DNA of 64,000 bases from NCBI GenBank assembly GCA_048595045.1, contig JBMDXS010000075.1:355-64354 (forward strand), in the 5' to 3' direction. Below are positions 19,585 through 40,525 of this stretch, piece after piece. The stretch comes from Acidimicrobiia bacterium. Lineage in GTDB: Bacteria > Actinomycetota > Acidimicrobiia > Spongiisociales > ZC4RG35. The position numbers were made by a program, and so were the translations under genes. The stretch's first letter is position 1. Each line of letters opens with the position of its first letter. The notes below the pieces were generated by a model. That model was not told the origin of the DNA, ran no database searches, and worked only from the letters and a program-made list of their open reading frames with translations.

Positions 19585-20145
19585 CTAGATGGAGACCGGG
19601 CCTCGACGCAACACGACCGGCTCCGATCCGGTGACGTCCACCACCGTCGAGGCCTGTCCCCCTGGCGAGCGGCCTCCGACGTAGACCTGCACCCGGTCGC
19701 CGAAGATGGCGTGTGCCTCGGCATCGGTCATCGACTCCGGCATCCCGGACAGATTGGCCGAGGTGACCGCCAGGGGGCCGACTAGCTCGAGCAGGTGGAG
19801 GGTCACCGGGTGATCGGGCACCCGGAGGCCTACGGTCCGACGCTGGCCGTCGCCCACCCAGTCAGCGAGGATCACCTTGGGGGTGACCACCAGGGTCAGC
19901 GCCCCTGGCCAGTGAGCGGCAGCGAGCCGGGCGGCCACACCCTCGATCCTCCCGATCGATACCGCCTGTTCGACCGAGGCGACCAACAGGCCGACCGGCT
20001 TGTTCTCCGGCCGGCCTTTCAATTCGTACAGGCGGCCGATGGCTTCCTCGCTCACCGGGTCGGCACCGATTCCGTAGACCGTGTCGGTGGGGAGGCCGAT
20101 CACCTGACGGGCGTGGATCGCCGCGACCGCATCGGCGAGGCTCAA
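19585..20145 (-). CDS. tsaC: L-threonylcarbamoyladenylate synthase (YrdC/YwlC/TsaC family)
   Basis: 186-aa YrdC-domain ORF (IGLPTDTVYGIGADP, SANLSG). Confidence 0.85.
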   Translation of the reverse strand: MSLADAVAAIHARQVIGLPTDTVYGIGADPVSEEAIGRLYELKGRPENKPVGLLVASVEQAVSIGRIEGVAARLAAAHWPGALTLVVTPKVILADWVGDGQRRTVGLRVPDHPVTLHLLELVGPLAVTSANLSGMPESMTDAEAHAIFGDRVQVYVGGRSPGGQASTVVDVTGSEPVVLRRGPVSI

Positions 20146-20879
20146 GGCTTGACGGCGACGATGTAACGGTCGCGCCCGGTCAGGTCCTGACGGACGACGG
20201 CCGGGAGGTCGATGAACGAGCTCACGGCGGACACACCCTGTCTCTCGCCGATCTCACACACGATCACCCCACCAGGACGGAGCCACGATGCCGCCGAGGC
20301 GCCGATCCGCTCGATCACCTCGAGCCCGGTCGGCCCGGCCACCAGGGCCACCCTCGGCTCGCGTTGGACATCGACGGGAAGGGCGGCGAAATCGACCTCT
20401 GCGACATACGGTGGGTTGGCCACGATCAGGTCGACCATCCCCAGGATGGCGGTCGGAAGGGGATCGAACAGGTCGCCTTGGGCGAGATACACCTGCAGAC
20501 TGGTCAGACGGCGATTGTTGGCCGCCACATCGATGGCGTCGGACGAGATGTCGGTGGCGAATACGGCAGCAGTCGGGAACCTGCTCTTCAATGCCAGCGC
20601 CAGCGCCCCGGACCCGGTGCAGAGGTCGACGATGATTTCGGGGCTCCGCACCATCTTCGTGGCCAGCTCGAACATCCCCTCGGTCTCGGGCCGTGGTATC
20701 AGGACCCTTTCGTCGACCATGAGGTCGAGGGGGCCGAAGGCTGCGCTCCCCTCGATGTACTGCAACGGCTCGCCGCCGAGCCTCCGGGCGATGAGCGTCT
20801 CGAGGGGCGCGTCCGGGCCCGCAACGGCCTCGAGCCTCACCCTCTCGTGTTCGGGAATGGTCGCCATGGTGCCCCACAT
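20142..20879 (-). CDS. prmC: peptide chain release factor N5-glutamine methyltransferase
   Basis: 245 aa with SAM motif VDLCTGSGALAL and catalytic NPPY at residues 155-158. Short N-terminal domain. Confidence 0.88.
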   Translation of the reverse strand: MWGTMATIPEHERVRLEAVAGPDAPLETLIARRLGGEPLQYIEGSAAFGPLDLMVDERVLIPRPETEGMFELATKMVRSPEIIVDLCTGSGALALALKSRFPTAAVFATDISSDAIDVAANNRRLTSLQVYLAQGDLFDPLPTAILGMVDLIVANPPYVAEVDFAALPVDVQREPRVALVAGPTGLEVIERIGASAASWLRPGGVIVCEIGERQGVSAVSSFIDLPAVVRQDLTGRDRYIVAVKP

Positions 20880-21021
20880 CTCATGCCACGCCAGACGTCG
20901 AAAGATAGTTCACATAGGTGACCATCTCCCGCCTCTCCTCCCGCCCGTGACCAGGGAATCGGTGTCTGCCCTGCAATCATCGACCAGATGGATTCGTCGC
21001 CCTGGGACACCCGAGGCGGAC

Positions 21022-21390
21022 ATGGGTGATAACAAACGCGTCCTCGTGGCGGATGACTCGGAGACGGTGACCACGCTCCTGGTCACTGCACTCGAGCTCG
21101 AGGGGTACGTGGTGGAGACTGCCGTGAACGGGTTGGAGGCCTATGAGAAGGGCCTCACCGGCGACTACGATCTGGTCATCCTGGATCAGCTCATGCCCGG
21201 CCTGCTCGGGTTGGAAGTCATCGACCGCTGGAGACACGAGGGCCGGCAGATCAGCACGATCATGCTGTCCGGGGTCGACGACGATCGCACCGTGGTCGGG
21301 AGCTTCGAGTCCGGGGCGGTCGACTTCATTCAGAAGCCCTTTCGCCTCCCTGAGCTGTTGGCCAGGGTGCGACAGCATCTGCAGGGCTGA
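21022..21390 (+). CDS. stand-alone CheY-like response-regulator receiver
   Basis: 122 aa with D11/D12, phospho-acceptor D55 (VILDQLMPG), S83 and K105 (QKPF). No output domain. Confidence 0.88.
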   Translation: MGDNKRVLVADDSETVTTLLVTALELEGYVVETAVNGLEAYEKGLTGDYDLVILDQLMPGLLGLEVIDRWRHEGRQISTIMLSGVDDDRTVVGSFESGAVDFIQKPFRLPELLARVRQHLQG

Positions 21391-21444
21391 AGCCTCACCT
21401 GCCTCAATAGGCACTCGCCGGCGCCGATATAAGACCCAGATCTC

Positions 21445-22584
21445 ATGAACGGAACGACCATCGGCCTGATCGCGGTCGCGGTGGTCCTCATTTGCGACGT
21501 CATCCTCCTGCTCGGTCTGGTCGTGATGAAGACACTTCACCGCAAGCGTGCCGCGCTGCACAAGCTGAGGCGCGCCGGTTATGTCGCGACGCTCAGTCGT
21601 CGCCTGGCCTCTCCGGAGGCGACCGACCCCATCGATGCGGGAGCCGTCGACGACGACGCCTTCATCGATGCCGTGATCGACGTTCGGAACGTGGTCACCG
21701 GAGAGAAGGTCGAGACGCTGGCCGGGATCATCGACGGCCTCGGGCTCGCCCGCAGGCAGGAGGCGCGGCTGCGCAGCTCGTTTCCTCTCGGTCGTCGTCT
21801 GCGCGCCGCCGTGTCCCTGGCCGAGATCGGTGACGAGTCCACGGCCCCGGTTCTCGTCGAGCATCTCTCCGACCGTGAGCCTGAGATCAGGATCCAATGC
21901 GCCCGAGGGTTGGGTCGGATCAGGCACACCGCCGCGATCGACGCCATCCTGGAGCGATTCGACCTCGAGGAGCCCTGGGTCAGGGCACGCTTCGCCGACA
22001 CCCTGGTCGGTTTCGGAAGCAAAGCGACCTGGCCCCTTGTCGCGTACATCAGGGTGAACCTTCGGCACCACGACAACGACGGAGTAGTCGAGGCCATCCG
22101 GGTGCTTGGCGTGATCGGCGATCGCGACGTTGGCCCGACCCTGGCCGGGGTGTTGAGAGTGTCGAGCGATCCCGAGGTCCTGATAGCAACCATCGAGGCC
22201 CTTGGCGTCGTCGGAGGGCCGCTCGCCATCAGGCCGCTCAGGGCCGCCTTCCAATCCACCGACTGGCGCCTTCGGGCAAAGGCCGCAACCTCACTTGCCC
22301 AGATCGGAGACCCATCGGTCAACCCGGCGCTCGCCAGGGGATTGACCGACGCCAACTGGTGGGTCCGTCGCAACAGCGCGGCGGGGCTCGCCTCCCTCCA
22401 CGGGGGCACCGATGTGCTCCTGAATGCACTCGGCTCCGATGACGAGTTCGCCCGGGATGCAGCCGCTGAGGCATTGGCCGATTGCGGCGTCCTGGCCGGA
22501 GCCCGGGAACGAGAAGAGTCGGGCAAGGCCACTGCGGAGGACAATCTGCTCCTGAGTCACATGTCAGGGCAGGTGCTGGCTTGA
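21445..22584 (+). CDS. membrane-anchored HEAT-repeat (PBS-lyase HEAT-like) protein
   Basis: 379 aa. One N-terminal TM helix (IGLIAVAVVLICDVILLLGLVVM), then about 8 repeats of about 31 aa of the type xxxVRxxAAxALGxIGDxxAxxxL. Confidence 0.8.
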   Translation: MNGTTIGLIAVAVVLICDVILLLGLVVMKTLHRKRAALHKLRRAGYVATLSRRLASPEATDPIDAGAVDDDAFIDAVIDVRNVVTGEKVETLAGIIDGLGLARRQEARLRSSFPLGRRLRAAVSLAEIGDESTAPVLVEHLSDREPEIRIQCARGLGRIRHTAAIDAILERFDLEEPWVRARFADTLVGFGSKATWPLVAYIRVNLRHHDNDGVVEAIRVLGVIGDRDVGPTLAGVLRVSSDPEVLIATIEALGVVGGPLAIRPLRAAFQSTDWRLRAKAATSLAQIGDPSVNPALARGLTDANWWVRRNSAAGLASLHGGTDVLLNALGSDDEFARDAAAEALADCGVLAGAREREESGKATAEDNLLLSHMSGQVLA

Positions 22585-23990
22585 TCCCGGAGATCCTCCT
22601 CTGGGTTGGATACGCCACCCTGGCCTACTTCATCGTCATGCAGGTCTACATGGTCGGCCTTGGCCTGCGATCAGCAGCGGTGATGCGGCGCTCCCATCAT
22701 CTGGAGCGGTTCGGCCGCGTGTCGGAGATGCTGTCGAGCCGAACGTCGCCACCTGTGACGATTGTCATCCCCGCCTACAACGAGGCGGCCGGGATCGTCG
22801 ATTCGATCAGGTCGATGTCCATCGTTGGCTATCCGCGATTCGAGATCGTGGTCGTGAACGACGGGTCGAGCGACGAGACACTGGAGGCGTTGATCGAGGC
22901 ATTTCGTCTCGAGCGGGTGCGCATCCCCTATCGACCCGATATCCCCACCGCTCCGATCAGGGCCATCTATCGCGGTCATGGCGCCGTCGACATCACCGTG
23001 ATCGACAAAGAGAACGGTGGCCGGGCGGATGCGCTGAACGCGGGAATCAACGCGGCCAGGTATCCCTACGCCCTCTGCACAGACGCCGATGTGATCCTCG
23101 ACGCCAACTGCCTCGTGGGCGCCATGCGCAGAGTGGTGGAGGATCGCGAGCGCACGATCGCGGTGGGCGGCAACATCCGGCCCCTCAACGGCAGCAGGGT
23201 CCACCTGGGCCATCTCGTCGAAGCGGGAGTCCCCCGCAAGCTCATCCCCCGCATGCAGGCCTTGGAGTATCTCCGCACCTTCCTGGCCAGCCGACCGGCA
23301 TGGTCGGAGATGGGTGCGCTGCCATTGGTCTCCGGTGCATTTGGGGTGTGGAAGCGCTCCGCGGTGATCGCGGTGGGCGGATTCACCACGGGGCACATGG
23401 GCGAGGACATGGACATCACGATGCGCATGCACCGCTATCACATCGACAACGACATTCCGTACCGGATCGTCTACGAGCCGTCCGCAGTCATCTGGACCGA
23501 GGTGCCTGAGACTCTGCGAGTGCTGCGACGACAACGGGTGCGATGGCATCGGGGCCTTATCACCGCGGTTCGGGACTTCATGCCGATGACCTTCAACCCC
23601 CGATACGGGAAGGTGGGCACCGTGACCTGGGCTGCGATGTTCCTCTTCGAGTACCTGGCCCCCATCATCGAGTTCGTCGGATGGATCACGATCCCTCTGG
23701 CGCTCCTGCTCGGCACGCTCAACGTGACCTCGCTCCTGACACTTCTCGCCCTCGCCTTCGGCGTCGGGCTCCTCAATTCCCTCGTGGCGTTGTTGTTGGA
23801 CGAGTCCTACGGGTACTTCAACTCGCCGGCCGACACGGCCCGGCTGATCGTCATGGTCCTGATCGAGAACTTCGGCATGCGCCAGCTCACGGTTGCCTGG
23901 CGGGTCCGGGCGATCCTGGGCGGGGAAGCCACCAGGGTATGGGGGAACATGGAACGCAAAGGCGTGGCCAACCTCGGAGTTGGGGGCTGA
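22581..23990 (+). CDS. processive family-2 glycosyltransferase (PgaC/IcaA/BcsA-like synthase)
   Basis: Motifs IVIPAYNEA, NDGSSDET, TDADV, GEDMDITMR and QRVRWHRG (QxxRW), with TM helices at both ends. A TTG start at 22581 overlaps the HEAT-gene stop (TTGA). The longest ORF starts at 22482. Confidence 0.85.
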   Translation: MIPEILLWVGYATLAYFIVMQVYMVGLGLRSAAVMRRSHHLERFGRVSEMLSSRTSPPVTIVIPAYNEAAGIVDSIRSMSIVGYPRFEIVVVNDGSSDETLEALIEAFRLERVRIPYRPDIPTAPIRAIYRGHGAVDITVIDKENGGRADALNAGINAARYPYALCTDADVILDANCLVGAMRRVVEDRERTIAVGGNIRPLNGSRVHLGHLVEAGVPRKLIPRMQALEYLRTFLASRPAWSEMGALPLVSGAFGVWKRSAVIAVGGFTTGHMGEDMDITMRMHRYHIDNDIPYRIVYEPSAVIWTEVPETLRVLRRQRVRWHRGLITAVRDFMPMTFNPRYGKVGTVTWAAMFLFEYLAPIIEFVGWITIPLALLLGTLNVTSLLTLLALAFGVGLLNSLVALLLDESYGYFNSPADTARLIVMVLIENFGMRQLTVAWRVRAILGGEATRVWGNMERKGVANLGVGG

Positions 23991-24002
23991 GGCTCAGCCC
24001 CC
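23982..24002. terminator. perfect 21-bp palindrome embedding the convergent GT2 and prfA stop codons
   Basis: GGGGGCTGAGGCTCAGCCCCC. The arms at 23982-23991 and 23993-24002 are exact reverse complements. A candidate bidirectional terminator. Confidence 0.45.
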
Positions 24003-25055
24003 TTCGGCGAGACGCGCTGCCTGCTCGTCGGCGCTGAGCGCGGTCACGAACTCTTCCAGGTCGCCGTCGAGCACCTGGTCGAGGCGCTTGAGGGTGAGAC
24101 CGATGCGATGATCCGTCACCCGGTTCTCCTTGAAGTTGTAGGTGCGGATCTTCTCTGCGCGCTCACCCGACCCCACCTGGGAGCGCCGGGCGCCGGCCAG
24201 CTCCGATTGCTGGCGCTCCAGTTCCATCTGATAGAGCCGGGCACGAAGAATCCGGAGCGCCTTCTCCTTGTTCTGCAGCTGGCTCTTCTCGTCCTGGACG
24301 GTGACGACGAGGGCGGTCGGGATGTGGGTGAGGCGGACTGCCGAGTCGGTGGTATTGACCGACTGCCCACCCGGTCCGGTCGACCTGTAGACGTCGACCT
24401 TCAAATCGTTGGGGTCGATCGCCACCTCCACCTCCGCTACCTCGGGCAAGATGGCGACGGTGGCGGTCGAGGTGTGGATCCGGCCCTGTGATTCGGTCTT
24501 CGGGATCCGCTGCACACGATGCACGCCGGCCTCGTACTTCATCTTCGAGTAGGCGCCACGGCCCTTGATGGCAACGGTGACCTTGTCGAACCCGCCGGCC
24601 TCGGAAGGGGAGCTGTCCATCGACTCGACGACGAGCCCGGACCGATCTGCGTATCTCTGATACATACGGAGGAGGTCGCCGGCCCAGATCGCGGCCTCGT
24701 CACCCCCGGCTGCGGAGCGGATCTCGACGATCACATCTTTGGCATCGGCGGGGTCGGCAGGGACCAGCGCCAGCCTGACCCGCCCTTCGATCTCCTCGAC
24801 CTCGGCGGCCAGATCACGGGCGAGGCTCGCCATCTCGGGGTCCTGGTCCATCTCTCTCGCCACCTCGAGATCGGCGCGTGCCTGGCGGAGACGACGGACA
24901 TCGGCGACCACATCCCTGAGATCGGCGTGGCGCTTGCCCAATTCGGCGAGGAGCGAAGTGTCGGCCAGCGTCGCCGGGTCGGCCAGGGCGGCCTCGGTCT
25001 CCTCGAAGATCGACTCGATCTCGGCGAGCCGCATGGCGAGAGTGTCGTCCATCAC
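23994..25055 (-). CDS. prfA: peptide chain release factor 1
   Basis: 353 aa with GGQ motif (GPGGQSVN) and an RF1-type PxT tripeptide (PKT). Confidence 0.96.
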   Translation of the reverse strand: MMDDTLAMRLAEIESIFEETEAALADPATLADTSLLAELGKRHADLRDVVADVRRLRQARADLEVAREMDQDPEMASLARDLAAEVEEIEGRVRLALVPADPADAKDVIVEIRSAAGGDEAAIWAGDLLRMYQRYADRSGLVVESMDSSPSEAGGFDKVTVAIKGRGAYSKMKYEAGVHRVQRIPKTESQGRIHTSTATVAILPEVAEVEVAIDPNDLKVDVYRSTGPGGQSVNTTDSAVRLTHIPTALVVTVQDEKSQLQNKEKALRILRARLYQMELERQQSELAGARRSQVGSGERAEKIRTYNFKENRVTDHRIGLTLKRLDQVLDGDLEEFVTALSADEQAARLAEGG

Positions 25056-26071
25056 TCCTCCCCGGGTGGGGGGGTGACCCCAAGCACGACGCTGCGCACC
25101 TCCAGGGCGGACCCCGGTAGCCCGCCCCGTCCGATGACATCGTCGACCATCTCGTCATCGAGGGCCACGACCAGGCTCGATATCGCTACTTCGACCTGGC
25201 TCTCGTCGGGGACACGAGTCGTCAGCTTCTGTAACCAGATGCCGGGTGCGGCCAGCGCCCGTGCCAGCCATCCGCTGCTCCTGGTGCCCGACCAGCGGAG
25301 GATCTCGTAGGCGATACCGGCGATGATCGGTATGCCGAGCACCCGGGAGGCCACCAGGAAGAGCCAACCCGGCCTCCCGAAGAAGGAGAAGAGGATGATC
25401 GAGCCCAGGATCACGATGAGGAGGAAGCTGGTGCCACATCGCGGATGCTCGGGCGGGTAACGGCGGACCGACTCGACGCTCAGAGGCTCGCCTGCCTCGA
25501 AGGCGTGGATCGACATGTGCTCGGCGCCGTGGTACTCGAAGACACGGCCGATCTCGGCCGAGCGGCCGATCGCCCAGATATACCCCACGAAGAGGGCGAG
25601 GCGGATCACGCCCTCGGCGACGTTGAAGAGAAAACCGGACTCGCCCGCCACCGCCCCTGCGGCCAGCGCGGGCAGGACGATGAAGATCCCGGCGAAGAGG
25701 GCGAAGGCCAGTGCCATCGTCCATCCGATCTGGGATTTGCTGAGAGGCTCCTCCTCTTCACCGGCCGCCATCTCGGCCGACCAGGACAGGGCGCGGAAGC
25801 CGAGGCTCAACGATTCCCAGAGGACGACCACGCCGCGCACGAAGGGGATCCTCGCCGCCTGGTTGCGCTCTGCGAGACGACCGAGCACGTGTCGCTGGGC
25901 GACGATGTGGCCCTCGGGCTTACGAACCGCCACCGACCACGCCCCCGGGACGCGCATCATCACCCCTTCGATGACTGCCTGACCCCCGACCGTCTTGGCC
26001 GGGTCGATCGGACTGCTCAGCCGCTCGTGATCGGGACGCTCAGGTATCGAACGCGGGACTGGGGATCCCAA
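25052..26071 (-). CDS. DUF1385-family membrane protein (YqhQ-like)
   Basis: GGQAVIEGVMMR and HGAEHM motifs with several TM helices. Start uncertain: TTG 26071 is proposed because the longer ORF runs through rpmE. Confidence 0.75.
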   Translation of the reverse strand: MGSPVPRSIPERPDHERLSSPIDPAKTVGGQAVIEGVMMRVPGAWSVAVRKPEGHIVAQRHVLGRLAERNQAARIPFVRGVVVLWESLSLGFRALSWSAEMAAGEEEEPLSKSQIGWTMALAFALFAGIFIVLPALAAGAVAGESGFLFNVAEGVIRLALFVGYIWAIGRSAEIGRVFEYHGAEHMSIHAFEAGEPLSVESVRRYPPEHPRCGTSFLLIVILGSIILFSFFGRPGWLFLVASRVLGIPIIAGIAYEILRWSGTRSSGWLARALAAPGIWLQKLTTRVPDESQVEVAISSLVVALDDEMVDDVIGRGGLPGSALEVRSVVLGVTPPPGEE

Positions 26072-26096
26072 TCTCGGGTCGTCGGAAGCGTTCGAA

Positions 26097-26363
26097 TCAC
26101 TCAGCGTCAGCGGTTTCGGTCTCCGCACTCGTGTCGACCGGCTCCCCGGCCTTGGTGAATGCGGTCTTGCCGTAGCGCTTCTGGAAACGCTCCACACGGC
26201 CCCCGCTGTCGACCAGCTTCTGCTTCCCGGTGAAGAACGGATGGCACTCATTGCACAGCTCGATGTGCATGTCGCCGGGCTTGGTGCTCCTGGTCGTGAA
26301 GGTGTTGCCACACGAGCAGGTGACGTGGGTCTCGGCGTACTCGGGATGAATGTCGGTCTTCAC
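26097..26363 (-). CDS. rpmE: 50S ribosomal protein L31 (Zn-ribbon type)
   Basis: MKTDIHPEY..., CSCG...[10 protein letters not shown]. Confidence 0.95.
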
Positions 26364-38140: not shown

Positions 38141-39112
38141 CTAAGCGTTCTCTCCGAGGAAGATCTCCGACACCGACGAGTCCATGAAGATCGCCTGCAA
38201 GGTCTCGGCGAGGATCGGCGCGATAGAAAGCACCTGGACCTTGTCCAGCTCCAAGACCTCCTGCGAGACCGGCAAGGTGTTGGTGACGATCACCTCCTCG
38301 ACAGGTGCGTTCTTGAGCAGGTCCAAAGCCGGGTCGGAGAACACGCCATGGGTGGCAGCGATGCGAACACTGACCGCTCCCTGCTCGCGCACCAGCTCGG
38401 CGGCGTTGGTGACCGTCCCCGCAGTGTCGATGATGTCATCGACGATGACGGCGTGCCGTCCAGCGACGGTTCCAGCCATCTCGAGGGCTTCGGACACATT
38501 GTGCTGCACCGGGTCGCGCCGTTTGTAGACGACGGCGACGTCGCCGTCGAGGAAGCGGGCATAACGCTCCGCCCGCTTCACACCACCCGCGTCCGGGGAG
38601 ACGACGGTGGTGGGCCCGTCGATTCGTTCCGACAGGTAGTCGGTGATGATGGGCAGAGCTGTGAGCGAGTCGAAGGGCTTGTGGATGAAGCCCTGCAGCT
38701 GTCCCGTGTGCAAGTCGACCGAGACCAGGCGATCTGCCCCGGCGGTCATGAACAGATCACCGACCAGACGGGCGGTGATCGGCTCTCTCGGCCTGACCTT
38801 CTTGTCTTGCCTGCCGTAGCCGAAGAACGGCATGACCGCGGTGATACGGCGGGCCGAGGCCCGATTGAGGGCATCGATGGTGATCAACTGCTCCATGATG
38901 TTGTCGTTGATCGGGTCGCAATGGCTCTGCATCACGTAGCAGTCGGCGCCACGCACACTCTCGGCGGGCCGCACATAGATCTCACCATTGGCGAAACGGG
39001 AACGCTCCAGGTCACCGAGAGCGACCCCTAATGCCTCCGCCACCTCTTCAGCCAAAGAGGCATTGGCCCCGCCGGTGAAGAGCATCATTCGGTTGCGGGA
39101 GACAATGTCCAA
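38141..39112 (-). CDS. prs: ribose-phosphate pyrophosphokinase
   Basis: 323 aa with the PRPP-binding loop VIVDDIIDTAGT. Confidence 0.95.
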   Translation of the reverse strand: MDIVSRNRMMLFTGGANASLAEEVAEALGVALGDLERSRFANGEIYVRPAESVRGADCYVMQSHCDPINDNIMEQLITIDALNRASARRITAVMPFFGYGRQDKKVRPREPITARLVGDLFMTAGADRLVSVDLHTGQLQGFIHKPFDSLTALPIITDYLSERIDGPTTVVSPDAGGVKRAERYARFLDGDVAVVYKRRDPVQHNVSEALEMAGTVAGRHAVIVDDIIDTAGTVTNAAELVREQGAVSVRIAATHGVFSDPALDLLKNAPVEEVIVTNTLPVSQEVLELDKVQVLSIAPILAETLQAIFMDSSVSEIFLGENA

Positions 39113-39113
39113 C

Positions 39114-40502
39114 TCAGTCCTCGGCCTTCTTGGCGGCCTGCCTCGCTGCGCGGCGCTGAGAGTAGCCGCGTATCTCTCGCTGCTCGGTCCGCTCGATGGC
39201 TAGCGCTCCCTCCTCGACATCGTCGGTTATCACCGAGCCGGCGCCGGTGACCGCACCATCACCGATGGTCACCGGAGCGACCAGCATCGTGTCGGACCCG
39301 ATGAAGACATCCTCTCCGATCACGGTCTCGTGCTTCTCATATCCGTCGTAGTTGCACGTGACGGTCCCGGCACCGATATTCGTTCTGGCGCCAACCTTCG
39401 CATCCCCCAGGTAGGTGAGGTGTGGTGCCTTCGCGCCCGGGCCAAGAGTGATGTTCTTCGTTTCGACGAACGTGCCCACCTTGGATCCCTGCTCGAGGAC
39501 GGAGCCGGGGCGGAGTGAGGCAAAGGGGCCAACCTCGCAGTTGTCGCCGACGATGGCCCCTCGCAAGACGGCGTACCAGACAGTCGAGCCGGCGCCGATG
39601 GTGGAATCGAGGGCGAAGACATCGGGCCCGACCTTGGCACCGGCACCTACCTTCGTCTCCCCTTCGAGATGGACGCCCGGGTAGATCCGGGCCCCGGGCT
39701 CGACGATCACCGAGTCGTCGACATAGATGCGGTCCGGGTCGAGCATCCAGACACCCGACTCCATTAGTCGCTGGTTGGTGCGGGCCTGAAGGAGCGCCTG
39801 CGCCTGGGCGAGTTGGTCTTGAGAGTTGATTCCGATCACCTCCTGCGGTGTGGCCTCGACCGGCTGCAGGCGCTGGCCGCGGCCAACAAGGATCCCGACG
39901 ACGTCGGTGAGGTAGTACTCACTCTGTGCATTGTCGTTCGAGACACCCGCCAACGCATCGATCAGGTCCTTGGCCCTGAAGGCGTACACCCCCGCATTGA
40001 CCTCGCCGATGGCCCGCTCGGCTTCGTCACAATCACGCTCTTCCACCACCTCGACCACGTTGTCGGAGTCGTCACGAACGATCCGCCCGTAACCGGTTGG
40101 GTCGTCGAGCACCGCGGTCACCATCCGCGCGGCGACGTCCTCGGGTCGCTCGACCAGGCGAGTCAAGAGCTCGGGAGTGAGCAAGGGCATGTCGCCGTAG
40201 AGGACCAGGATGGTGTCATCCGGCGCCACACCGCCCAACGCATCGAGACCGACCTTCGTGGCATGCCCTGTGCCCAGTTGCCTCTCCTGGATAGCCGTCG
40301 TCACCCCCGGGGGGAGATGATCGAGCACCTCATCGGCGCCGTGCCCGAGCACCACTACGGTGTTGGCCGGCTCGAGAGGGTGGACGGCCTCGAGCACCCA
40401 GCCGATCAATGTGCGACCAGCCGCCATGTGAGCAACTTTGGGCAGGTCGGACATCATCCGCTTGCCCTGCCCGGCGGCGAGGACGATCACGTGCGTCGGC
40501 AA
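39114..40502 (-). CDS. glmU: bifunctional UDP-GlcNAc pyrophosphorylase / GlcN-1-P acetyltransferase
   Basis: 462 aa with LAAGQGKRM and C-terminal left-handed beta-helix hexapeptide repeats. Confidence 0.95.
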   Translation of the reverse strand: MPTHVIVLAAGQGKRMMSDLPKVAHMAAGRTLIGWVLEAVHPLEPANTVVVLGHGADEVLDHLPPGVTTAIQERQLGTGHATKVGLDALGGVAPDDTILVLYGDMPLLTPELLTRLVERPEDVAARMVTAVLDDPTGYGRIVRDDSDNVVEVVEERDCDEAERAIGEVNAGVYAFRAKDLIDALAGVSNDNAQSEYYLTDVVGILVGRGQRLQPVEATPQEVIGINSQDQLAQAQALLQARTNQRLMESGVWMLDPDRIYVDDSVIVEPGARIYPGVHLEGETKVGAGAKVGPDVFALDSTIGAGSTVWYAVLRGAIVGDNCEVGPFASLRPGSVLEQGSKVGTFVETKNITLGPGAKAPHLTYLGDAKVGARTNIGAGTVTCNYDGYEKHETVIGEDVFIGSDTMLVAPVTIGDGAVTGAGSVITDDVEEGALAIERTEQREIRGYSQRRAARQAAKKAED

Positions 40503-40525
40503 GGAGCTACCTCTCTAATCTCGGG

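Follow-up and report, generated by a model that had tools for sequence, protein, structure and literature searches.

A receiver, a membrane-anchored HEAT-repeat protein and a processive-type glycosyltransferase form a widespread gene module, placed between prfA and prmC in a lineage of Acidimicrobiia

We analyzed a window of 64,000 nucleotides (nt) from an Acidimicrobiia bacterium (contig JBMDXS010000075.1 of assembly GCA_048595045.1), in which a cassette of three plus-strand genes is located between the minus-strand genes prmC and prfA. The cassette codes for a stand-alone response-regulator (RR) receiver, a membrane-anchored HEAT-repeat protein, and a membrane-integrated glycosyltransferase of family 2 (GT2), and we consider it probable that the three proteins form a phosphorylation-controlled synthase holoenzyme, composed of the GT2, a HEAT co-subunit, and the receiver. 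Judged from sequence comparisons, the association of the three genes is far beyond chance, and the cassette is not peculiar to the genome analyzed, since the module is widespread in bacterial phyla and in haloarchaea.

The cassette and its flanks are listed in Table 1. The window contains all three elements by which we recognize the module, namely, a GT2 of the subfamily described below, an anchored HEAT protein whose gene lies upstream of the GT2 gene and overlaps it, and a receiver domain (REC) upstream of the HEAT gene. (i) The receiver matches the Response_reg profile from position 1 to 111 and has an intact set of functional residues: the acidic pocket (D11 and D12), the phosphoacceptor aspartate (D55), the conserved S/T position (S83), and the lysine (K105). 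(ii) The HEAT gene starts 54 nt after the end of the receiver gene, and its product has a single N-terminal hydrophobic helix (residues 9 to 27), followed by the Lys/Arg cluster KTLHRKRAALHKLRR; a number of about 8 repeats is plausible. (iii) In the GT2 translation, the motifs NDGSSD, TDAD, GEDMD, and QRVRW are readable, and hydrophobic helices are found at both termini. The stop codon of the HEAT gene and the start codon of the GT2 gene overlap in TTGA. A preliminary description, made from the sequence alone, had proposed these three genes with the residues, motifs, and membrane helices given above, the TTGA overlap, a perfect palindrome holding both convergent stop codons, and the order of the minus-strand flanking genes. 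All of these were confirmed by the Pfam matches, the translations, the open reading frame (ORF) list, and the sequence itself. In agreement with its statement that no PilZ, GGDEF, PgaD/IcaD-like partner, or histidine kinase gene is nearby, Pfam scans detected no PilZ or GGDEF domain in the three cassette proteins and no histidine kinase among 20 other large ORFs of the window, and the gene adjoining the GT2 gene codes for the TM-HEAT protein.

An exhaustive GT2 search of representatives of 50%-identity clusters retrieved 1127 proteins at E <= 1e-30, many of which were 36 to 46% identical over the full length. In the survey of loci, one genome per GTDB species was scanned with an alignment of diverse GT2 sequences, and the loci were annotated with hidden Markov models (HMMs) of the HEAT family, the Acidimicrobiia RR, and the GT2 subfamily; the counts given are those among the matches listed. 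GT2s that matched the subfamily profile over the full length were 33 to 42% identical to the window protein, as against 25 to 32% for outgroup GT2s, which included those of Streptomyces and Micromonospora. The sample spans at least 12 phyla. Subfamily loci were found in the Gemmatimonadota, Marinimicrobia, Myxococcota, Fibrobacterota, Planctomycetota, Acidobacteriota, Bacteroidota, and Verrucomicrobiota, in the Bifidobacteriaceae, Burkholderiales, Beijerinckiaceae, Gaiellaceae, and Solirubrobacterales, and in the Bacillaceae and relatives (B. caseinilyticus, Sporosarcina luteola, Priestia, Neobacillus mesonae, and Jeotgalibacillus). The comparison of subfamily and outgroup loci gave the following results. 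(i) Of the 43 subfamily loci with upstream sequence, 40 had the HEAT gene fused to the GT2 gene or immediately before it in the same orientation, compared to none of the 35 outgroup loci (Fisher p = 4.7e-19). In the remaining three subfamily loci, the upstream ORF coded for an N-terminally anchored protein of 280 to 370 aa without detectable repeats. (ii) Of 38 loci, 21 had a REC on the same strand no more than 1.5 kb ahead of the HEAT gene, compared to 0 of 35 in the outgroup (p = 2.9e-8). (iii) Clustering of the neighboring ORFs of 47 subfamily neighborhoods identified HEAT, REC, and GT2 as the only recurrent families, and no deacetylase recurred in these neighborhoods. (iv) In annotated plasmid records, the gene order is kinase-RR-RR-YaiO barrel-HEAT-GT2, plus an Hpt gene, in Mesorhizobium ciceri WSM1271 pMESCI01 (MESCI_RS32000-32015); RR-hypothetical-GT2-hypothetical-YaiO-LTA (lipoteichoic acid) synthase in Emticicia; hypothetical-HEAT-GT2 in Planococcus; and RR-HEAT-GT2, with 4-nt overlaps at both junctions, on a plasmid of the haloarchaeon Salinirubellus. 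(v) Overlaps between the HEAT stop codon and the GT2 start codon (TTGA, GTGA, ATGA, or TGATG) occur in Acidimicrobiia, Mesorhizobium, and the haloarchaeon. A plasmid search with the HEAT protein, which served as a negative control, returned only generic HEAT proteins in unrelated contexts, as in Aquabacterium. In one metagenome-assembled genome of the Actinomycetes (L051:5983-7290), the subfamily GT2 is split into at least five frame fragments, which may reflect a pseudogene or an assembly error.

The two membrane proteins of the module also occur as natural fusions. About 35 to 45 of the 150 best representatives are transmembrane (TM)-HEAT-GT2 proteins of 940 to 1010 aa, in which the GT2 occupies the C-terminal half and the N-terminal half is collinear with the TM-HEAT protein of the window, as seen with Pfam and with our HMM of the HEAT family. 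This HMM matched P0263 (E = 5e-23, profile positions 23 to 318), P0312 (2e-10, positions 13 to 320), and about a dozen others; a homologue search with P0312 returned 4 proteins. The order is reversed in P0288, where the GT2 is followed by four HEAT_2 stretches, and P0322 is a single HEAT-GT2-REC chain, in which the REC scored 37 bits, above the cut-off. P0335 resembles it, with a REC score of 24.7 bits that is below the Pfam cut-off. These proteins also bear on the topology. Clusters of Lys and Arg follow the TM helix of the HEAT protein and the first helix of the GT2, as expected for cytoplasmic segments under the positive-inside rule, and every fusion examined contained an extra TM helix (~440 to 465) between the HEAT part and the first GT2 helix. 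The Lys/Arg clusters, this extra helix, and the fusion of REC or HEAT domains to the GT2 C terminus are three independent lines of evidence for a cytoplasmic HEAT solenoid, on the same side as the GT-A domain and the receiver, with a predicted N-out orientation of the HEAT TM helix. The earlier proposal that the TM-HEAT gene encodes a dedicated partner of the GT2 is thus strongly supported by the co-occurrence in 40 of 43 against 0 of 35 loci, by the conservation of the gene overlap across domains of life, and by the fusions. The possibility that the HEAT protein is a bilin lyase or NblB was rejected, with scores of 45.5 bits for NblB (cut-off 300) and 39 to 40 bits for CpcE/F (cut-off 220 to 330); its likeness to phycobilisome (PBS) lyases is at the level of the repeat only, and the TM anchor is absent from lyases.

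The named homologues of the window come from Acidimicrobiia. Four loci (L001, L002, L003, and L007) show exactly the same layout, atp...prmC, then RR-HEAT-GT2, then prfA...thrC, with prmC orthologues in the equivalent position. The GT2s of these loci are 73 to 83% identical to that of the window, which is comparable to the values for prfA (70 to 84%) and prmC (69 to 86%), and the identities of the HEAT protein (57 to 71%) and the RR (63 to 70%) are comparable to that of tsaC (59 to 76%). Since its divergence matches that of housekeeping genes, the cassette has been inherited vertically under strong constraint. The insertion was assessed by a prfA-seeded scan of metagenomes, annotation with our HMMs, and a neighbor-joining (NJ) tree of prfA, and the loci reported are again among the matches listed. 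Further carriers were L095 (prfA 83% identical) and L101 (67%), and the cassette at the prfA/prmC site is common to at least seven Acidimicrobiia loci (the window, L001, L002, L003, L007, L095, and L101). In five other loci (L096 to L100; prfA 69 to 74% identical), prfA is directly followed by prmC, with gaps of 0 to 460 nt and without the cassette. Their prmC fits the profile of the window lineage (E ~1e-127 to 1e-132) as the prmC of L001 to L003 does, and they form one clade nested among the cassette carriers in the prfA tree, where L101 branches deeper, paired with L103. The gap of 851 nt between prfA and prmC of L103 contains neither the cassette nor a remnant of it, and no cassette remnants were found in the corresponding gaps of cassette-less relatives. 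In L096 and L098, the gaps (~440 to 460 nt) hold a putative minus-strand ORF of 134 to 151 aa without similarity to REC, HEAT, or GT2.

This distribution is most simply read as an old event in which the cassette was inserted between prfA and prmC on the opposite strand and, in one subclade, was later lost or relocated. The preliminary description had regarded the cassette as wedged between two genes that are adjacent in Mycobacterium tuberculosis. As an event, the insertion is supported by the clade in which prfA and prmC are contiguous, but it is ancient and vertically inherited; a recent horizontal insertion was rejected on the grounds of a GC content of the cassette that equals that of the flanks and of its housekeeping-rate divergence. 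The contiguity itself applies to L096 to L100, but not to more distant relatives (L103 and L106), in which the junction holds other genes. Outside the Acidimicrobiia, the module never adjoins prfA or prmC, the sole exception being a paralogue of the HemK/PrmC family of methyltransferases 0.9 kb downstream of the HEAT-GT2 pair of Mesorhizobium ciceri pMESCI01 (L089:8309-9034). A functional link between the module and prmC was rejected, and this neighbor is probably a coincidence because it is a single case among ~50 loci outside the Acidimicrobiia.

A GT2 as conserved as prfA and prmC, amid genes for translation and ATP synthase, would also be consistent with a spatial, cell-cycle, or envelope-housekeeping device, in which the HEAT protein, with or without the receiver, directs the synthase to the septum or a pole, and a wall-associated glycan needed for normal growth is made. 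The monoderm window, in which no export or modification genes were found, is in line with such a role, and a septal link is suggested by P0250, a GT2 relative fused to a C-terminal SepF (cell-division) domain, and by a weak SPOR match (18.8 bits) before the TM helix of a Bacteroides HEAT partner (L025:4941-6929). However, SepF and SPOR were each found only once, the SPOR match without reaching the Pfam cut-off, strict essentiality is disfavored by the nested clade of close relatives without the cassette at this site (unless it was relocated), and the GGDEF, Hpt, and REC relay links look like environmental signaling. We therefore regard this explanation as rather unlikely.

The relay links are found in the proteins encoded upstream of the HEAT gene, which invariably have the HEAT-adjacent REC at their C terminus. 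In the spirochaete locus L005, GGDEF-REC forms the C-terminal part of the protein whose gene overlaps the start of a HEAT-GT2 fusion, and other upstream proteins have the architectures REC-REC, REC-GGDEF-REC, Hpt-REC-REC, Hpt-GGDEF-REC, and X-REC. Mesorhizobium and Emticicia are among the carriers in which kinase or Hpt genes are found with the module. A precedent is OE2401F, a PBS-type HEAT protein of Halobacterium salinarum that binds CheY and a membrane machine and is needed for signal output (PMC2666748). It is conceivable that only the HEAT protein is a genuine partner of the synthase and that the receiver is simply co-transcribed and acts elsewhere, as a phosphate sink or a relay branch, without contacting the synthase. 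The lack of a REC beside 17 of the 38 modules, the window without a nearby kinase, and some Bacillaceae in which the only nearby RECs are downstream, in 275-aa ORFs, point in this direction. Such a separate role is at odds with the REC fused to the C terminus of HEAT-GT2 in P0322 (and, below the cut-off, in P0335), with the constant C-terminal position of the HEAT-adjacent REC in varied upstream proteins, with its being the REC most similar to the window RR in 6 of 6 loci that contain several RECs, and with the 4-nt overlap of the REC and HEAT genes in the haloarchaeal operon, and we judge it distinctly improbable. The link of the receiver to the synthase, as originally proposed, hence stands insofar as a REC adjoins HEAT in 21 of 38 loci and is fused in P0322, but it is not universal.

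Concerning the GT2, the best curated family was PgaC_IcaA (TIGR03937; 145.6 bits, E = 2e-42, cut-off 422.3), and CelA (TIGR03030; 40.7 bits, cut-off 699), NodC, and others scored far lower. Among solved structures, the subfamily profile scored 58 bits with BcsA and 46 bits with the Chlorella virus hyaluronan synthase (CvHAS), neither of which is a close relative by sequence. The AlphaFold2 model of the window GT2 (predicted local distance difference test [pLDDT] 84.6, predicted TM-score [pTM] 0.86) had its best Foldseek match in CvHAS (TM-score 0.69, root mean square deviation 4.7 Å, 459 columns), followed by Xenopus HAS1 (XlHAS1), the yeast and Candida chitin synthases (Chs1/2), and BcsA (all matches at E <= 1e-11 over ~460 to 500 columns). 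In the predicted model, the GT-A domain is placed on a bundle of TM and interface helices that would form a translocation channel. The D, DxD, (G/T)ED, and QxxRW motifs of processive synthases are all present, and the subfamily shows no variation at D94, D168, D170, E275, D276, Q318, R319, R321, and W322. By its predicted fold, the GT2 is thus a probable processive synthase of the HAS/Chs/BcsA/PgaC class; from the PgaC, HAS, and Chs neighbors, a product containing N-acetylglucosamine (GlcNAc) may be weakly guessed. Specific to the subfamily are an insert of ~25 aa after the NDGS strand (residues ~105 to 135), a second insert (~200 to 220), and a C-terminal WGxMxRxG tail (WGNMERKG in the window), which was modeled at low confidence. 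The window GT2 matches the subfamily HMM as a single full-length domain (E = 4e-190), whereas the matches of outgroup GT2s are split at the insert. The inserts and the tail are candidate partner-binding elements. PcManGT, a small archaeal membrane GT2, was also among the top structural matches and would suit a membrane enzyme that decorates a lipid or protein acceptor with single sugars and has HEAT as its substrate adaptor, but we give very little credence to this option, given motifs (QRVRW, GED, and DxD) typical of processive synthases, the full-length fold match to HAS, Chs, and BcsA including the TM region, PgaC/IcaA as the closest curated family, and, in diderms, an outer membrane (OM) barrel, TPR, and a BcsG/LtaS-like modifier typical of polymer export.

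In diderms, the module is extended, by fusion or by neighboring genes, with OM barrels of the YaiO family, with TPR/FecR extensions, and with LtaS/BcsG-like domains of the sulfatase fold, and these additions would fit an exported, possibly modified polymer. In Bacteroidota (L017:4115-6208, P0302, P0317, and L090:7673-9640), the subfamily GT2 is fused to, or located before, a sulfatase-fold LtaS/BcsG-like domain, which suggests a decoration of the putative polymer with phosphoglycerol or phosphoethanolamine. YaiO-family OM beta-barrel genes are found beside the module at L089:3192-4934, L090:6858-7619, and L092:1570-2343. In Escherichia coli K-12, yaiO adjoins yaiP (an uncharacterized GT2), yaiS (a putative deacetylase), and yaiX (an acyltransferase disrupted by IS2). 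YaiP was rejected as a subfamily member, being 24% identical to the window GT2 and devoid of the subfamily insert, and a search of open-access full text for YaiO found only PCR-marker papers.

We compared the module to characterized systems. (i) The poly-beta-1,6-GlcNAc synthases PgaCD and IcaAD, the best-scoring curated family, share with the window a compact GT2 that has TM helices at both termini and a synthase that needs a co-transcribed membrane partner from an adjacent gene. They differ in that the partner in the window is a TM-HEAT solenoid of 379 aa and not the small PgaD/IcaD, in that the GT2 gene is followed by the convergent prfA, in that the operon consists of three genes only, without a PgaB/IcaB deacetylase or PgaA, and in the insertions and WGxMxRxG tail of the subfamily. 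Control by cyclic di-GMP (c-di-GMP) takes place at the PgaC-PgaD interface, whereas control in the window appears to be exerted via the receiver domain. (ii) Class I HAS (CvHAS and vertebrate HAS1) is the best structural match and, likewise, combines synthase and translocase in a single polypeptide, but it is only 13 to 17% identical to the GT2, has the weak profile score mentioned above, and works without HEAT or a receiver. (iii) BcsA-BcsB is a processive GT2 system with (T/G)ED and QxxRW motifs that is regulated at the enzyme level by a cytoplasmic signaling domain, and the TPR/OM component and the BcsG-like phosphoethanolamine/LtaS-type domain added in diderm relatives of the module increase the likeness. 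The window GT2 is a much smaller enzyme without PilZ or BcsB in the Pfam scan, and the signaling input of the module is REC, preceded by GGDEF in some lineages. (iv) In the Pel system, the membrane-anchored alpha-solenoid PelE (TPR-like) and the signal receptor PelD assemble with the glycosyltransferase at the cytoplasmic face. The Pel glycosyltransferase is, however, a soluble GT4, export occurs through PelG, the receptor binds c-di-GMP via a degenerate GGDEF, and no sequence relationship between Pel and window proteins is known. (v) OE2401F/CheY resembles the module in combining a PBS-type HEAT protein, a stand-alone phospho-receiver, and a membrane machine, a likeness drawn by repeat type only; the machine is the archaellum switch, not a glycosyltransferase, and OE2401F has no TM anchor. 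No model of NCBIfam release 20 reached its cut-off for the HEAT or GT2 family, the Prokaryotic Genome Annotation Pipeline (PGAP) gives the module genes generic names only, and no description of the module was found in targeted open-access full-text literature, so that the absence of a match to a characterized system, already remarked on in the preliminary description, holds. We place the module among the synthase-dependent polysaccharide systems, in which both its co-subunit and its regulatory input would be new; by analogy, it would work like PgaCD, BcsAB, Alg8/44, and Pel.

From gene anatomy, co-occurrence, fusions, topology, fold class, and phylogenetic placement we infer physical contacts, control by phosphorylation, and a polymer product in the following way. 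The three genes would constitute one operon for a polysaccharide machine of the synthase-dependent kind, whose set of accessory proteins has not been described. Its membrane-embedded HAS/PgaC/chitin-synthase-like polymerase, the GT2, would make and probably translocate a glycan, possibly with GlcNAc. The HEAT solenoid at the cytoplasmic face would be the obligate partner or co-subunit of the synthase, and the HEAT:GT2 ratio may be fixed by translational coupling through the stop/start overlap. The receiver would be phosphorylated at D55 by an unlinked kinase or an Hpt relay and would dock on the cytoplasmic HEAT/GT2 assembly, switching or tuning polymerization and taking the place that PilZ/c-di-GMP or a PgaD-type protein has in the control of known synthases; c-di-GMP may be a second input in those lineages that have GGDEF-REC. 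The module would have landed in inverted orientation between prfA and prmC in an ancestor of the Acidimicrobiia group, followed by vertical inheritance at housekeeping-like rates. A number of points weigh against the phosphorylation-controlled holoenzyme. No histidine kinase or Hpt gene was found in the conserved flanks or among the 20 other large ORFs of the window. The modules without a neighboring REC include several Actinomycetota, and because of these 17 of 38 cases the REC is accessory, not obligate. The survey frequencies are estimates among the loci listed, and the NJ tree was built from prfA alone and carries no support values. The score of the GT2 stays below the cut-off of its best curated family, and its structural neighbors make three different polymers. 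Lastly, the model of the natural fusion P0312 is of moderate quality (pLDDT 70), with ~90 for the HEAT part and a poor GT2 part. A broader version, which we put forward tentatively and at somewhat less than even confidence, is that of an ancient synthase class of more than 12 phyla and haloarchaea in which HEAT would be an obligate co-subunit and phospho-REC on HEAT, not c-di-GMP, the primary switch, with an envelope function in the present lineage that is inherited vertically within the prfA-prmC translation cluster and evolves at housekeeping rates.

Table 1. Cassette genes, flanking genes, and intergenic elements of the window
Feature	Position	Strand	Remarks
prmC (release-factor glutamine methyltransferase)	20142..20879	-	Left flank, divergent from cassette; MTS and PrmC_N Pfam matches
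prmC/receiver divergent intergenic region, 142 nt	20880..21021	.	Presumed cassette promoter region; read from sequence
Stand-alone RR receiver, 122 aa, without output domain	21022..21390	+	Pfam Response_reg, 87 bits
Membrane-anchored HEAT-repeat protein, 379 aa	21445..22584	+	HEAT_2 (111 bits), plus HEAT and HEAT_PBS
Membrane-integrated processive-type GT2 synthase, 469 aa, TTG start	22581..23990	+	Glyco_tranf_2_3, Glycos_transf_2, Glyco_trans_2_3
GC-rich palindrome, 10+1+10, GGGGGCTGAG-g-CTCAGCCCCC	23982..24002	.	Holds GT2 TGA and prfA TCA (convergent stops)
prfA (peptide chain release factor 1)	23994..25055	-	Right flank, convergent with GT2; PCRF and RF-1

The minus-strand flanks of the cassette are atp-glyA-tsaC-prmC on one side and prfA-DUF1385-rpmE-rho-thrC on the other. 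No match to the sigma-70 consensus was found in the divergent intergenic region, and the cassette promoter is therefore presumptive. The palindrome at the end of the cassette would fold as RNA into a 9-bp GC hairpin (-26.6/-23.3 kcal/mol, z -3.2/-2.6) without a U tract and is possibly a bidirectional hairpin terminator of a type other than the canonical intrinsic one; its position is not conserved in relatives. The window prmC is short (245 aa) and covers only the last 19 positions of the PrmC_N profile, and those of relatives were called at 207 to 270 aa. The DUF1385 gene (25052-26311, minus strand) between rpmE and prfA is kept there in all cassette-bearing relatives, and its longest ORF has an extension of ~90 aa that is absent from relatives (321 to 336 aa called). 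A glmU-like gene (NTP_transferase and Hexapep) and prs are found at 38144-40514 on the minus strand, ~14 kb from the cassette; they represent a generic UDP-GlcNAc supply that is unlinked to the cassette operon. No polysaccharide deacetylase was found among the 20 other large ORFs of the window. The minus-strand antisense ORFs 20977-22254, 21579-22544, and 22671-23549 were rejected as genes and considered high-GC artefacts; shadow ORFs opposite the GT2 gene recur in 34 loci.

Synthase-dependent exopolysaccharides, such as cellulose, poly-N-acetylglucosamine, alginate, and Pel, are central to biofilm biology, and to our knowledge the known post-translational control of these systems is exerted almost entirely by c-di-GMP receptors (PilZ, PgaD, PelD, and Alg44). 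If the proposed holoenzyme is correct, the module would represent a new type of synthase co-subunit and a different control logic, in which two-component phosphorylation is read by a HEAT adaptor. It is present in lineages without known envelope polymers, namely, Acidimicrobiia, Gemmatimonadota, Planctomycetota, and haloarchaea, but also in tractable organisms such as Mesorhizobium, Sporosarcina, Priestia, Pedobacter, and Flavobacterium, and the natural one-chain fusions are ready-made targets for cryo-electron microscopy. The module would thus provide a hypothesis on the function of hundreds of genes that are at present named only "HEAT repeat domain-containing protein," "response regulator," and "glycosyltransferase family 2 protein."

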